A DNA stretch of 64,000 nt from Bdellovibrionales bacterium (GCA_965203275.1 OZ241865.1:1312001-1376000), one strand, 5' to 3'; shown: positions 39,001-45,000, counted from the stretch's first letter. Numbers are program-made.

Positions 39001-42000
39001 ACAAGTCATGTACAAGTAAGATAAGAAATCTTTGCTAAAATATTTTAAGGAAATGCATTAAGTATGAAACACACCATTGATTATACATTACAAGAATGTT
39101 TATCACTTTTAGCTTATCATTCTCAAGGGATGACAATAGAAGATTTTATCAAATATTCTGCTTGTCAAGTGATTGAAAAAACCTCTAGTTTATTGCTCGA
39201 GTTAGTTCCTAATGGCAAATTGCGTTCTTACCTTTTAAAACATCCTGATTGGTATCATCAAGCTTCAATGCAAATAAAACAGCTTAAGGAACAAAATATC
39301 CATATCCTTCATGTAGAACACCCTGATTATCCTAAAAACTTTTATAAATTACCTGATCCGCCACTTTTTTTAACATATCAAGGGCAACCTGTCTGGAAAA
39401 ATAACCAATGCTTAAGTGTTGTAGGAAGCCGAGAACCTACTACAAGAGCCTTACAATGGATGGAGACACATCTCAAGTCTGTTTTTGCAGAGGCTTGCTC
39501 TGTGAGTGGAGGAGCAAGAGGTATCGATCAAAAAGCCCATAATATTTCTCTTCGGCTTAAGAGACCTACTGTGGTTTTTCTCCCAAGCGGTTTGAAGACT
39601 ATTTATCCTCAAACATTAAGTCAATGGTCAAATGAAATTATTGAACAAGGAGGAGCCATTGTTTCAGAATATTTACCTGAAGTAGCTATGCAAAAGCATC
39701 ACTTTCATAGACGTAACCGCCTTATAGCAGCTATAGGAGATGTGCTTTTAGTGGTTGAGGCACGTATTAAAAGTGGGACTCTCCTGACTGCTAATTTAGC
39801 CTCTGCTATAGATCAATCCCTAGCTGTAGTGCCTACCTTTCCAGACGATGTCCGTAGCCAGGGCAACCTTAAGCTCTTGCTGGAAGGTGTGCAACCTGTA
39901 GCTTCCTCACAAGACTTATTGAGCTTGATCCATGTAGGGTATGAAAAACGCAAAATACTTTAGTTACTCTAGAATTTCTAAAACACTGCGTTTATTGATT
40001 TTAGTACTGGCTGCATTCAATATAGACCGAATAGACTTTGCCGTACGGCCTTGTTTACCTATGACTTTGCCTAAGTCCTCTTTAGCGACCCTTAACTCAA
40101 TCACAGTTGTGTGTTCTCCAACCATCTCATTCACAACAACATCTTCTGGCCTATCTACTAATGATTTTGCCATAAATGCCACAAGTTCCTTTAAATTTGT
40201 TTCATTGCCCATATATATCACCTCTAGCTGTTAGCTTTTGTTATCAATAGTTAGTTATTCTTATCTTACTCGATATTCACAACAAAATAAATAGATTTTT
40301 GTTTTTTTTGTATTTTTTTTAACTTATGGCTTTATTTTATCCTTACAATAGCTGTTTTTGTTCCTTTTTGAGACGATATCTATTGTGAAACATCATCATC
40401 CTTTTTGTGATCTTTCTGTGTTGTTTCTTTTAATTCTGGCTGAGTGTCCTTTGACTCATCTAGTTGATCTTCTTTAGATTCTAGCTGAGTGTCCTTTGAC
40501 TCATCTAGTTGATCTTCTTTAGATTCTAGCTGAGTGTCCTTTGACTCATCTAGTTGATCTTCTTTAGATTTTAGCTGAGTGTCCTTTGACTCATCTAGTT
40601 GATCTTCTTGAGATTTTAGTTGAGTGTCCTTTGACTCATCTAGTTGATCTTCTTTAGATTTTAGTTGAGTGTCCTTTGACTCATCTAGTTGATCTTCTTG
40701 AGATTTTAGTTGAGTGTCCTTTGACTCATCTAGTTGATCTTCTTTAGATTTTAGTTGAGTGTCCTTTGACTCATCTAGTTGATCTTCTTGAGATTTTAGT
40801 TGAGTGTCCTTTGACTCATCTAGTTGATCTTCTTTAGATTTTAGTTGAGTGTCCTTTGACTCATCTAGTTGATCTTCTTGAGATTTTAGTTGAGTGTCCT
40901 TTGACTCATCTAGTTGATCTTCTTGAGATTTTTTTGTTGTAGCCCTATCTTCTGAACTTGATTTAGATTTTTGAGACGATGTAGAATGACTCTCTTTTAC
41001 AACAGAGGCTTTTGCTACTTCTGCCTTTGCTGTTTTAGAAGCCTGTTTTGTTGTTGTTTCCTCTTGAGTGTCCTTTGGCATAGACTTTGCTTTCGAGTCC
41101 TGACCAGAAGATTTTGCACTTTGTTTCTCTGAAGAAGATGCTTTTTTATCTTTTTTGAGGTTTTTACCAGGACTCTTTTGAAGATATTGAGGAATATCTA
41201 ATGAAGGATTTTGCTGTTCAAAAATAAGTCTTTGAACCCTCAAAGAAGGCCTTGCCCCTCGATTAATCCATTGATTAGCTTTTTCTAAGTCAATGACAAA
41301 TTTCTTCTTAGCTCCTTTTTGCGAAGGAACATAATGACCTAAAACTTCAATGACATTGCTGTTTCTCCATCGCCTTTGATCTGCCACTGTAACGCGATAT
41401 TTAGCTGCTTTTTTTGCTCCATAGCGAGATAAACGGATAACTACCATATTTCAAAACTCCTTCAAATGAAGTAAATCACAATTTCATCATAATATGCAAT
41501 AAAATATCATATCAAGTCAAGGCTAAAATACAAACACTCTTTATTTATTTTCAATTTCTGCCGAAAAGATTAATAGATAATCTTTAGATTGAAAAAGTCA
41601 CTTTTTGATATAGGTAATAATTCCCCATGAAATCAGTAAATAAAAAAAGCTCAAATAGTTTATCAGTTACTGTTTTAATTCTTACTCTCACTGCCATGAT
41701 GATTGGATTTCAAAATTGCCGAGAACCCCTTATTGTCAGAGAAAACAAATCTCAAAGAACGGAGCCTAGTCCTGTTCCTAGAATATCTCCACTTGTTGAC
41801 AGTAGCGATCTTACTCTTAGAACTCCTACCTCGATAGGTCAAATTGTAGCTCATTGTCAACAAGATATTAATTACAATGCCTGTATTTACAAGAAAAACC
41901 CTGTGGCTCAAAAAGCAGGTAGTATTAGCAACTTAGACAACCCCGCAGCAGTATTACAACAACTTATTTCATTACAGACTTATGCTGTCAATATAACAGG

Positions 42001-45000
42001 CACACTTGAAGGGCTTCTGAAAAACAAGCATTTTGATATAAAAGTGGATTCTGCTTATACAAGAGCAAGGCTTTCGGGTGGTAAGTGGACTACAAATATT
42101 TCCCATCGTGATTTATCAGTGGAACAAGCTATGGCTTATTATTGGCTAATGTATCAGAAAGAATGGATGGAGCTTAATGCTAGAACTTGGCATGCTACCA
42201 ATAAAAAAGTAAATGTTGAAATCAGTGACGGTGTAGCTCCTACATTATTTTGTGCTTATTGGAGCATGTCGGAAAATAAAATACATTTTTGTGGGATTCA
42301 AGCGGCTTTAAGTGGAGAGATTATTGTACATGAAGCAGGTCATGCAAATTTCCATCATTCTAACAATCAACGCGTTCCGACAAATCTCTGTGATACTCAT
42401 GTCAAATGTTCCAATCGGCAATCTTTATGCTCTCTTTCTGAGGAAGATTTAAACGATCCTAATTTACATCAATGTTGCCTTTCTGAAAAAGGATGTTTAT
42501 TTGCTATCAATGAAGGGCAAGCAGATTTTCATGCATCTCTGTTGTTTTCAGATCAAACTCAAATAGGAGAATTTGTTGTTAATAAGCTGGAAGGCATTGG
42601 AAGTTGTGCTTCCAGTACTAGCCCTTTAAGGGACCCTCAGGCTAATAAAAGTCTCACAGTAAGTAAGGCATTTAATAGTTGCGAAAACCATCTCAATGGA
42701 AAGGGGGAAATCCATGTTATGGGCATACTTTATAATAGTATATGGTGGGAAATTTATAATCATCCCGATGTCAATAAAAAAGAGATTGTTATTTTATTTT
42801 CGGAACACTTACCGCTCTTGACTTACAGAGACAATTTTGAAACGGCTGGGCGTAAAATTATTAATTTAGCTAGGCAGTTATATAGAGGTGATAAAGGCCA
42901 AAACTATGCTAATATTATTAGGCAAGAATTTACTCGCAGAGGACTTAATTTATAAAAGCCTGTTGCTTTTTGTCAAAGGCGAAAGCCTTTGCGGTCATTG
43001 TCCAAAAGTGACCAGAGGTCAGTTTACTTTTAGTGAAATGGACCACTTTTAGTGAAAAGGACTAAAGGACTATTATGAAAAAAATACTATTAAAGGTTAA
43101 ATGTTTACCACATTATTCTGGAGCAATGCCTCATTATGAAAGCTCTATGGCAAGTGGCTTTGATGTAAGAGCTTGTCTTAAAGCAAGCATGACCATTCAG
43201 CCTGGTCAAAGAGTATTGATTCCTACAGGATTGAGTTTTGAAGTGGCTTCAGGTTATGAAATTCAAGTTCGTCCTCGCAGTGGGCTAGCCCTTAAAAAAG
43301 GAATAACCTTATTAAACTCACCAGGAACCATTGATGCAGACTATAGAGGAGAAGTTAAAATTATTGTTATTCATCATGGGCAGGAACCCGTTGTCATTCA
43401 TAATCAAGATCGTATAGCCCAGCTTGTGCTATGTCCTATTGTGCAGGCTGAATTTCAATTTGTTTCTCATCTCAGCACTACTCAAAGAGGTGAAGGAGGT
43501 TTTGGATCAACGGGTATAAAATAAAATATCTTAATGAAATTTCTAACTAAAATTTCTAACTAACAAAACATGTTAAATTATTAATTTTCAAATCCTTCTT
43601 GCTCATTATTGGCCCAAGGCCACAGTATAAATCACAAGTCGGGTCAATCTCTGGTAGGTTTTCAGAAAAGATATTAAATATGATCTATAGGGATATCACG
43701 ATTTAAGATGGTTTTCCGTCTATCTGCTTTAGCATTTTGTATGCCTCTTTTACAAAGAATTTCAACAGCATGAGAAAGCTGGTCTATGCTTTTGCTTGAT
43801 GCATGCAAATCAGCTGTCTCCTTAACATATTTTTTAACTTTGCTTATTATAACAAATCCTGCCATCATTTATCTCCTCTTCCTTCTGTTAAAGCCATACA
43901 CTATAATTATAACATCATAAAATGGACTTTTAGAAAAGTCATAATAAAGAGATATTTGATTTGTCTGGTCTTTAGTTTAAAAAGTGGTGTGCATACGTTC
44001 ATGATCTTTAGCAAAGCGATCTATCCCTATGTCCGTCAAAGGGTGTTCTACAAGCTGTTTCATTACTTTAAATGGCATGGTCACAACATCAGCAGCTAAT
44101 AACCCTGCTTCTAAGATATGCAATGGATGACGAGTACTAGCTACCAGTATTTTTGTTTTAAATTGATAATTCATAAAAAGAGTATGAATTTGTGAGACTA
44201 TATCCATACCTTTTGTAGAAATGTCATCTAGCCTCCCTACAAATGGGGAAACAAAAGTTGCTCCTGCTTTAGCACACATCAAAGCTTGAAGAGGATGAAA
44301 TATCAAAGTCATATTGGTCCCTATATTTTTCTGAGATAAGGCACGAGTGGCTTTGAGTCCTTCTATTGTCATAGGAATTTTGATCACGATATTGTCTTTT
44401 TTGTATTTGTTCATAATGGAAGTGCCTTCTGCAATCATATCCTCTGCTGTTTTAATTTGTGTGACTTCTATGCTGACAGGTCCTTTGACTGTGTCTGTGA
44501 TTCCATTGATTAATTGATCTTTAAACTCTTGGATATCTACATTAGAAGATGACTTCTGTGATTTGTATTTTTCAAATTGCTTGGCAATCAATGAAGGGTT
44601 TGTAGTGACACCATCCACCCATCCACATTTATAAGCCTCTTTGATTTCATCTATGTTAGCTGTATCAATAAAAAATTCCATAAAAAATCCCCTTGTTTCA
44701 AAAAGAGCTTAATTAGAATTTTATGACTAGATGATATTCATTTTTTGGTAAGCTCCCTAGCTTTATAAAAGTTTTAGACTTCAATCAATATCTTTTTAAA
44801 AATAACTCGCCGTCCTCTGACAGCTTGTGTCAACTTTATAAAAAGCTAGCCATCATCATTTAAGTCAAAACTTAAGTTTTAAGAAGATATAAAAAGACAG
44901 GGTACTTGATTTTCAAAAGATAATTTCTATAACTCTAATATTTATTTATCAAAAGAAACTTTAATGAACACAAATGATTAAAGTTATAAAGCATACATCA

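Follow-up and report, generated by a model that had tools for sequence, protein, structure and literature searches.

Apparent loss of the signal recognition particle in a closed Bdellovibrionales genome and in a second clade of Bdellovibrionota

The rpsP locus and searches of the closed genome

Can a bacterium with a normal-sized genome dispense with the signal recognition particle (SRP), which is essential or nearly so in model bacteria? The question is raised by the rpsP locus of a Bdellovibrionales bacterium (GCA_965203275.1, hereafter G000), where no ffh gene stands at the place that it occupies in the sister genus, represented by genome G007. The locus lies in a stretch of 64,000 nucleotides (OZ241865.1, 1312001 to 1376000; the window), along which the positions in Table 1 are counted.

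Table 1. Features around rpsP and the former ffh site in the window.
Feature	Position	Strand	Evidence and remarks
khpA-type KH-domain gene	39964..40221	(-)	PF13083, 84.3 bits; downstream of rpsP; counterpart in G007 90.9 bits
rpsP (ribosomal protein S16)	40380-41447	(-)	PF00886, 61 bits, residues 8-68; 355 aa
45-bp tandem repeat coding for the S16 tail	40441..40932		10.9 copies, 97% matches
Spacer 5' of rpsP, 179 bp, ffh-free	41448..41626		ORF list; corresponds to the ffh position in sister genus G007
442-aa ORF, predicted lipoprotein, no Pfam family	41627..42955	(+)	lipoprotein-like N-terminus, HEAGH (HExxH) motif

The khpA-type gene is a kept remnant of the old ffh-rpsP operon. On the other side of rpsP, where ffh would be, lies the divergently oriented 442-aa ORF, which has a homologue with 45% identity at the same position in the related genome G038; its N-terminus and HExxH motif, together with the lack of a P-loop, rule it out as a diverged Ffh. 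In translation, S16 of G000 consists of the S16 domain and a 290-aa repeat tail rich in K, E, D, S and Q. This tail occurs only in G000, the S16 proteins of the relatives being 77-88 aa long, and it was discarded as a feature of the clade.

To search the genome for SRP components, we used protein, RNA and nucleotide models alongside 14 control genomes. The SRP54 GTPase profile PF00448 gave no match over the cut-off in G000 (controls 14/14 positive), the best of ten matches at E ≤ 10 reaching 16.8 bits and covering profile positions 5-41 only. The Ffh M domain (PF02978) yielded no candidate in G000 and was found in all 14 controls, in a search that covered G000 and the controls, and the single PF02881 match in G000 (13.4 bits) falls inside PNPase. 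When Ffh and FtsY of G007 were compared by phmmer (run without --max) with 35,090 six-frame ORFs of G000, the best E value was 0.035, and 0.21 for FtsY alone. A custom HMM, applied with --max to the 2,328 gene calls, returned at the top an Mrp/NUBPL-type ATPase and ParA (20.2 and 19.1 bits). The weak PF00448, PF02881 and P-loop matches were rejected as cryptic SRP GTPases, all of them belonging to other families: PriA, two PilT-type ATPases, RadA-like and ChlI-like proteins, Tmk, PNPase, the Mrp/NUBPL-type ATPase and ParA. As for the RNA, the SRP RNA model RF00169 had no match at E ≤ 10 anywhere in G000, with 13 of the 14 controls matched and ten over the cut-off; nhmmer with the G007 ffs gene gave a best E of 14, and the spacer 5' of dnaX in G000 contained no SRP RNA when scanned with all Rfam families at E ≤ 10, RF01854 having been applied at this spacer only. 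The genome is a closed circle of 2.57 Mb: one AspRS reading frame runs across the junction of its contig ends, with positions 1-236 of the Pfam domain tRNA-synt_2 at the close of the contig and 237-307 at its beginning. As judged from sequence, the searches confirm that G000 appears to be without the bacterial SRP pathway, with Ffh, FtsY and the 4.5S-type RNA all absent.

Empty gene sites within one family

Within the order, PF00448 was found in 117 of 121 sampled genomes, the exceptions being G000, G038, G019 and G029. The family to which these belong comprises five species, and only G007 among them has a PF00448 match; it scores 248 bits for FtsY, 234 for Ffh and 90 for FlhF, and 73.7 bits for SRP RNA. 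G038, G019 and G029 have neither a PF00448 match nor an RF00169 match at E ≤ 10 (3/3), and G000, G038 and G019 each consist of a single contig. A tree of three proteins from 17 genomes (1,294 columns) unites the four SRP-free genomes in one clade (UFBoot 100, SH-aLRT 98) with G007 as its sister (100/100). The first-pass annotation had described G000 as circular and devoid of Ffh, FtsY and SRP RNA, the three nearest genomes as lacking the same parts and the next relative, G007, as keeping them. Our analysis agrees with it on these points: the AspRS frame split over the contig ends bears out the circle, PF00448, PF02881, PF02978, the custom HMM, phmmer, Rfam and nhmmer bear out the absence, PF00448 and RF00169 do so for the three neighbours, and the Ffh, FtsY and RNA scores for G007.

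The chromosome of G007 carries ffh, ftsY and ffs at three places that are not linked to one another, and the genes next to ffh and ffs there also occur on the chromosome of G000. The G007 gene order is ffh-rpsP-khpA-rimM-trmD, with a 455-aa ffh that stops just 5' of rpsP. G019 and G029 keep rpsP-khpA-rimM-trmD with ABC-transporter genes and no ffh upstream, and G000 and G038 keep rpsP-khpA, again with no ffh. Similarly, ffs precedes dnaX-ybaB-recR in G007, dnaX-recR is found in all four SRP-free genomes, and their spacers upstream of dnaX (approximately 230-1100 bp) hold no SRP RNA at E ≤ 5, in the same scan that recovered the G007 RNA. Two of the three gene sites, those of ffh and ffs, are thus visibly empty. 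The ftsY site does not lend itself to comparison, because the G007 contig terminates there and the ftsY neighbours in G007 are without homologues in G000.

Distribution in another class of the phylum

To assess how far SRP loss extends, we surveyed 301 genomes of the phylum, 234 of which have the Ffh M domain. The class that includes genome G152 is represented by 79 genomes with a completeness of 90% or more, among them MAGs of GTDB class UBA1018 such as the magnetotactic FG-1 and FG-2. FtsY is over the cut-off in 16 of the 79; each of the remaining 63 shows no more than a single match, scoring 105 bits at the highest, which is FlhF in the five of these genomes that were checked. SRP RNA turned up in 15 of the 16 FtsY-positive genomes and in none of the 63 others. 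Ffh, FtsY and SRP RNA are absent from 63/79 genomes of this class. On a YidC tree exactly two state changes are required for SRP loss, and the loss in the class of G152 is, by this phylogeny, apparently a second, independent one. The SRP-free lineages have genomes of 1.6-5.4 Mb. What is new is that SRP loss is not confined to the family of G000 and recurs in a second, larger clade of the phylum.

We consider it very probable that the loss is real, having weighed two ways in which it could be illusory. An SRP that is present and diverged past recognition, or replaced by non-homologous substitutes at other loci, would be in keeping with the long branches of the SRP-free clade (the stem of g3, the group of G019 and G029, measures 1.09 changes per column) and with the FlhF scores of the second clade, which go down to 70-150 bits. 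It is nevertheless improbable. Ffh and FtsY score 234-248 bits in G007 (73.7 for the RNA), and it is implausible that members of a single family should have dropped under 21 bits; at the ffh and ffs sites the genes are physically gone and their neighbours kept; each weak match in G000 has been assigned to another family; and the models still recover FlhF, which is the more divergent paralogue, from the second clade and can therefore detect SRP-type GTPases in it. An artefact, in which a replicon with the three genes escaped assembly or binning, or the genes themselves were dropped at one of these steps, is less credible still, and we give it hardly any weight. The genomes concerned all seem to be assemblies from uncultured organisms and the estimated completeness of G000 is 90.44%; on the other hand, G000 is a closed circle, G038 and G019 are single contigs, four family members and 63 genomes at least 90% complete all lack these three parts, and FlhF, YidC, SecA and ribosomal genes were all found in genomes without SRP parts. 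Also against an artefact are the three unlinked sites of the genes in G007 and the presence, on the chromosome of G000, of the genes that flank ffh and ffs. With ffh and ftsY among the markers of the bac120 and CheckM-type sets, their true absence would itself depress completeness estimates for these lineages; G000, although closed, is scored at 90.44%.

Membrane protein targeting and known SRP-free systems

SecY, SecA, SecD, SecF, YidC, TatC and TatA/B are present in G000. The polytopic clients of the membrane include NuoL, NuoM/N, an H+-PPase, two AcrB proteins, MurJ, FtsW/RodA, DctM and NhaA, among others, and a crude hydropathy count predicts at least four transmembrane (TM) segments in 113 of 2,328 gene calls and at least two in 228. 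With 2.57 Mb and 2,328 crude gene calls, G000 does not fit the pattern of an extremely reduced genome whose membrane proteome is minimal. Loss of trigger factor was ruled out, Tig being kept (77.5 bits).

The best account of these data, in our view a likely one, with most weight on the part that was directly shown, is that Ffh, FtsY and the 4.5S-type RNA, the components of the SRP pathway, would have been lost once in the ancestor of the genera g1 (G000 and G038) and g3 (G019 and G029) of this family and independently in another class of the phylum, across a large clade, and that membrane proteins may today arrive at SecYEG and YidC along routes common to all bacteria. Translating ribosomes would bind SecY or YidC directly, SecA would scan nascent chains at uL23, and slow translation would widen the time window for targeting. 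G000 has one rRNA operon (from a GC scan and Rfam on two candidate regions) and 37 tRNA genes; the single operon is compatible with slow translation, as a proxy only. That these generic routes and slow translation are enough, with no dedicated new factor, is a reading towards which we lean slightly.

Among the traits measured, none sets the SRP-free genomes apart from their SRP-containing relatives so as to explain compensation. There is no long ribosome-binding YidC tail (10-30 aa in 25 SRP-free rows versus 7-23 aa in 22 SRP-containing rows) and no second YidC, which is single-copy in 5/5 genomes of the family and in 31/31 genomes of the class of G152 that span SRP-free and SRP-containing families. 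Across all five family members SecA is present in one copy with frames of 883-917 aa, revealing neither a second SecA nor a clade-specific length, and uL23 measures 95-102 aa with no extension. TM segments were not seen to be less hydrophobic (peak hydropathy 2.0-2.16 in both groups, in a crude Kyte-Doolittle scan); ORFs with at least four TM segments make up 6.2% and 7.8% in SRP-free versus 9.0% and 12.6% in SRP-containing genomes, in 400-kb samples with a crude predictor.

This result bears on the rival reading in which the loss is real and a dedicated targeting factor, protein or RNA, replaced SRP. Such a factor may be phylum-specific and predate both losses, and under this reading SRP would have become dispensable twice in one phylum because the factor was already there. 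Two independent losses in one phylum, against SRP kept in 117/121 genomes of the order and 14/14 controls, speak for it, as does the search for known compensations in YidC, SecA and uL23, which turned up none; no candidate emerged, and G000 has no Get3/ArsA-type ATPase, its ArsA_ATPase matches being short P-loop stretches within Mrp and ParA. We regard a dedicated factor as possible, though doubtful. Equally tentative is the wider proposal of two or more independent clade-wide SRP knock-outs in Bdellovibrionota of 1.6-5.4 Mb, one of the clades with flagellated magnetosome formers, made possible by an undescribed means, present in this phylum, of guiding ribosomes or nascent membrane proteins to SecYEG and YidC.

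Returning to the loss with generic routes that we prefer, the interpretation in the first-pass annotation survives in part. The clade-wide loss in a normal-sized genome that keeps Sec, YidC and Tat is upheld by the empty sites, the phylogeny and the retention of SecY, SecA, SecD, SecF, YidC, TatC and TatA/B. Its proposal that YidC or SecA compensates finds nothing distinctive in YidC tail, YidC copies or the copies and length of SecA, and its claims of a 'first' case and of uniqueness to 'this clade' fall with the 63/79 SRP-free genomes of the class of G152 and with a 2016 list that counts Elusimicrobium minutum and Dehalococcoides spp. as SRP-less (PMC4779614). Its statement that the papers searched gave no report for Bdellovibrionota agrees with our literature search, which found no account of SRP loss in the phylum (the lone co-mention of both terms is unrelated); 'signal recognition', ffh and ftsY do not occur in the main text on the FG-1 and FG-2 MAGs (PMC13200544).

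Descriptions of SRP routinely present it as conserved across all organisms, as the abstract of PMC7844537 does. Ancient, many-species SRP-free lineages that retain normal-sized genomes along with complex I, RND pumps and cell-wall flippases would indicate that SRP is dispensable in evolution, beyond laboratory suppressors. Hundreds of membrane proteins are still encoded without SRP, which makes these bacteria natural test cases for SRP-free membrane targeting, and since each clade has an SRP-containing sister, they offer replicated natural experiments on dispensable co-translational targeting.

Reduced insect endosymbionts, with genomes far below 1 Mb and tiny membrane proteomes, share with the lineages described here the natural joint loss of Ffh, FtsY and SRP RNA; the present lineages differ in their 1.6-5.4 Mb genomes, in the number of proteins with four or more TM segments, which exceeds 100 in G000 (crude count), and in a loss that is clade-wide. 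Hodgkinia, Tremblaya, Zinderia, Carsonella, Sulcia DMIN and Blochmannia vafer are listed without SRP RNA and protein in the 2016 source, which also includes Elusimicrobium minutum and Dehalococcoides spp. (PMC4779614). The mitochondria of most eukaryotes have dispensed with SRP, and their ribosomes are tethered through the C-terminal tail of Oxa1 as well as through Mba1/mL45 (PMC8321541). YidC/Oxa1-dependent insertion without SRP is common to both systems; here the YidC tail is not extended, and since a full set of soluble proteins is encoded, the argument for permanent tethering, that ribosomes make membrane proteins only, does not apply. Streptococcus mutans is likewise a bacterium living without SRP, but by laboratory deletion in a species that naturally keeps it, and YidC is single-copy here. 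Escherichia coli without ffh, as described in PMC7844537, is rescued by IF2 M454R with IF3 P100S, or by S3 W22R, through slower translation initiation. It shares with our lineages the state of an SRP-free Gram-negative with SecYEG, YidC and SecA; its suppressors are laboratory mutants with growth defects, unlike the natural lineages reported here.

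SRP parts in G000 and its family

The genome to which the window belongs (G000) is a single contig of 2,567,810 bp (35% GC, no N), and it is closed because a 599-codon frame runs across the contig ends, with positions 1-236 of the Pfam model tRNA-synt_2 at the end and 237-307 at the start. In six-frame searches of this genome, the SRP54 GTPase model (PF00448) gave no match over the cut-off (best of 10 matches at E<=10: 16.8 bits, profile positions 5-41), the Ffh M domain (PF02978) no candidate, and the N domain (PF02881) a single match of 13.4 bits; the SRP RNA model (RF00169) gave nothing at E<=10. 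As controls, the protein models matched in 14/14 genomes and RF00169 in 13/14, ten of them over the cut-off. Ffh and FtsY of the sister species G007, compared with 35,090 six-frame ORFs by phmmer, reached a best E of 0.035, an HMM from six Ffh/FtsY sequences of the order (--max, 2,328 crude gene calls) reached at best 20.2 and 19.1 bits, and nhmmer with the G007 SRP RNA a best E of 14. The weak matches were all rejected as SRP GTPases, being a Mrp/NUBPL-type ATPase, ParA, PriA, two PilT-type ATPases, RadA-like and ChlI-like proteins, thymidylate kinase and PNPase. The first-pass annotation, which described a circular genome without Ffh, FtsY or SRP RNA, is thus borne out by the joined contig ends and by the Pfam, Rfam, phmmer, custom HMM and nhmmer searches, and on this homology evidence the loss is very probably real. 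The completeness score of G000 is only 90.44% despite closure (G038 92%, G019 93%); ffh and ftsY are generally counted as universal marker genes, and their true absence may partly lie behind the low score.

Among 121 sampled genomes of the order, PF00448 was found in 117 and not in G000, G038 (same genus, one contig), G019 (one contig) and G029, which together with G007 are the only five species of the family. G007 encodes FtsY (248.1 bits), Ffh (234.4 bits; TIGR00959, 582.6 bits), the further SRP-type GTPase FlhF (89.6 bits) and SRP RNA (73.7 bits), and none of these was found in G038, G019 or G029 (RF00169: nothing at E<=10), as the first-pass annotation, with a smaller sample of the order, had claimed. 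A maximum-likelihood tree of YidC, DnaX and RecR (17 genomes, 1,294 columns) recovers the family as monophyletic (100/100) and, inside it, a single clade of the four SRP-free genomes (UFBoot 100, SH-aLRT 98) with G007 as sister; SRP was lost once within this family.

Former gene sites and rearrangement

The rpsP locus of the window is the expected position of ffh, and no ffh gene lies there. G007 has the canonical order ffh-rpsP-khpA-rimM-trmD; G019 and G029 retain rpsP-khpA-rimM-trmD with genes for an ATPase and for a permease of the ABC-2 type in the expected place of ffh, and only rpsP-khpA is left in G000 and G038. The 442-aa ORF divergent from rpsP, rejected as Ffh on its N-terminus, its HEAGH motif and the lack of any Pfam family, has a homologue at the equivalent place in G038 (45% identical). 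The S16 tail, made of ~15-aa repeats with a high content of K, E, D, S and Q, occurs only in G000; S16 is 77-88 aa long in the other four species.

Features of the rpsP locus (window positions) and of the dnaX spacer (contig positions) in G000
Feature	Position	Strand	Description
khpA-type KH gene	39964-40221	-	PF13083; downstream of rpsP
rpsP	40380-41447	-	S16 domain PF00886, 61 bits, residues 8-68, then 290-aa tail
45-bp tandem repeat within rpsP	40441-40932		10.9 copies, 97% matches; codes for S16 tail
Spacer upstream of rpsP			179 bp; separates rpsP from the divergent ORF
442-aa ORF, predicted lipoprotein	41627-42955	+	Lipoprotein-like N-terminus, HEAGH motif, many Cys
Spacer upstream of dnaX	2066291-2067402 (locus L024, 4292-5402)		1.1 kb; place of ffs in G007

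The SRP RNA gene of G007 stands in the order ffs-dnaX-ybaB-recR, and dnaX-recR is present in all four SRP-free genomes. A permissive all-Rfam scan of their spacers upstream of dnaX (roughly 230-1100 bp) found no SRP RNA and recovered the G007 copy alongside (73.7 bits). The G000 spacer contains a long palindromic hairpin (~145 nt), both strands of which score against models of plant miRNA precursors (RF04157, 53 and 45 bits). At the place between dnaX and recR, ybaB is missing from all four (loci L055-L059), and tblastn with YbaB of G007 found nothing in G000 at E<=1e-8. The rpsP, rimM, trmD and rplS genes are dispersed over the G000 chromosome, and the spc cluster upstream of secY (locus L277, contig 2310000-2327000) is broken by non-coding gaps and stops early; G000 is heavily rearranged relative to G007.

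A second SRP-free clade in the phylum

Across 301 phylum genomes of at least 90% completeness, only 234 contain the Ffh M domain, which is absent from families f23 (0/42), f24 (0/14) and f20, f26, f27 and f32 (each 0/1). In five genomes checked from these families FlhF is the sole SRP-type GTPase (TIGR03499, within flhA-flhF-fliA clusters), MeaB is also present, and RF00169 gave nothing at E<=1. Within the class holding the GTDB class UBA1018 genomes, FtsY exceeded the cut-off in 16 of 79 genomes (f29 6/6, f30 7/7, f31 2/2, f35 1/1); among the matches listed, these 16 score 299-338 bits for FtsY, 175-222 for Ffh (116 for a partial Ffh in one fragmented assembly) and 72-101 for FlhF, all three being seen in 14 (two matches in G193, one in G274). 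The remaining 63 comprise 51 with one match of at most 105 bits and 12 with none at E<=1e-10. SRP RNA was detected in 15/16 genomes with FtsY and in 0/63 without FtsY over the cut-off; the three SRP parts therefore vanish together.

A YidC tree of 47 rows, made by a quick method, gathers every SRP-free row into one of exactly two clades, with SH-aLRT support of 98 and 99. Each clade lies within a set of SRP-containing relatives, and the minimum is two changes of state. The observation is confirmed, and its extent is wider than the single Bdellovibrionales clade first proposed: SRP loss is not unique and took place in two independent clades, the second being new in this analysis. YidC open frames (stop to stop) are short in f24 (468-490 aa; loci L199, L202-L204, L208, L210, L214) and measure 514-603 aa in the class's remaining 23 rows.

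Named public genomes reached via FlhF loci are a UBA1018 MAG, FG-1, FG-2, MFD09671.bin.1.114 and GWA1_52_35; in each the FlhF locus is the only match (134-143 bits), apart from a 27-31-bit match in four of the five. FG-1 and FG-2 are described as magnetotactic MAGs of GTDB class UBA1018 (PMC13200544), in whose main text "signal recognition", ffh and ftsY do not occur. The flhB-, flhA- and flhF-sized ORFs of G007 (contig C86, 24475-29141) had no tblastn match at E<=1e-6 in the whole of G000, from which the flagellar export apparatus thus also seems to be missing; this would be why G000 has no SRP-type GTPase at all, while the second SRP-free clade keeps FlhF.

Membrane-protein biogenesis without SRP

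As the first-pass annotation stated, the Sec, YidC and Tat systems are retained: G000 encodes SecY (382 bits), one SecA, SecD, SecF, TatC, TatA/B and one YidC, along with trigger factor. It also encodes NuoL, NuoM/N, a H+-PPase, two AcrB, MurJ, FtsW/RodA, DctM, NhaA, SSF and Na:Ala symporters and CcsA, all typical polytopic SRP clients. A crude Kyte-Doolittle count gave at least two TM segments in 228 and at least four in 113 of 2,328 gene calls. The membrane proteome is far from minimal and may be somewhat leaner in SRP-free genomes, since ORFs of at least 100 aa with at least four TM segments make up 6.2% in G000 and 7.8% in G019 versus 9.0% and 12.6% in the SRP-containing G007 and G022 (whole genome for G000, 400-kb samples for the others).

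None of the known remedies for SRP loss is visible in YidC tail or copy, SecA copy, uL23 length or TM hydropathy. YidC or SecA had been put forward as the compensating part, and neither is distinctive: the YidC tail after the last TM measures 10-30 aa in 25 SRP-free rows versus 7-23 aa in 22 SRP-containing rows, and both proteins are single copy, no second YidC or SecA being found. uL23 carries no extension (95-102 aa in 5/5 family members), and peak TM hydropathy does not differ between SRP-free and SRP-containing genomes. G029 has two uL23 genes (C14 169530-169787, 84.6 bits; C11 33275-33544, 80.1 bits), which could reflect contamination (estimated at 3%) or duplication.

One rRNA operon was detected in G000 (GC scan plus Rfam on two candidate regions), with 37 tRNA genes, which is compatible with a slow-growing cell. 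These counts would also fit, by analogy, the E. coli ffh deletion, reported to be rescued by mutations that slow translation initiation (PMC7844537). Our literature search found no report of SRP loss for Bdellovibrionota. Elsewhere, one sentence of PMC4779614 names Elusimicrobium and Dehalococcoides together with tiny endosymbionts that lack SRP, Streptococcus mutans is described as surviving deletion of the SRP pathway, and mitochondria, which have lost SRP, are reported to use the Oxa1 tail and Mba1 (PMC8321541).
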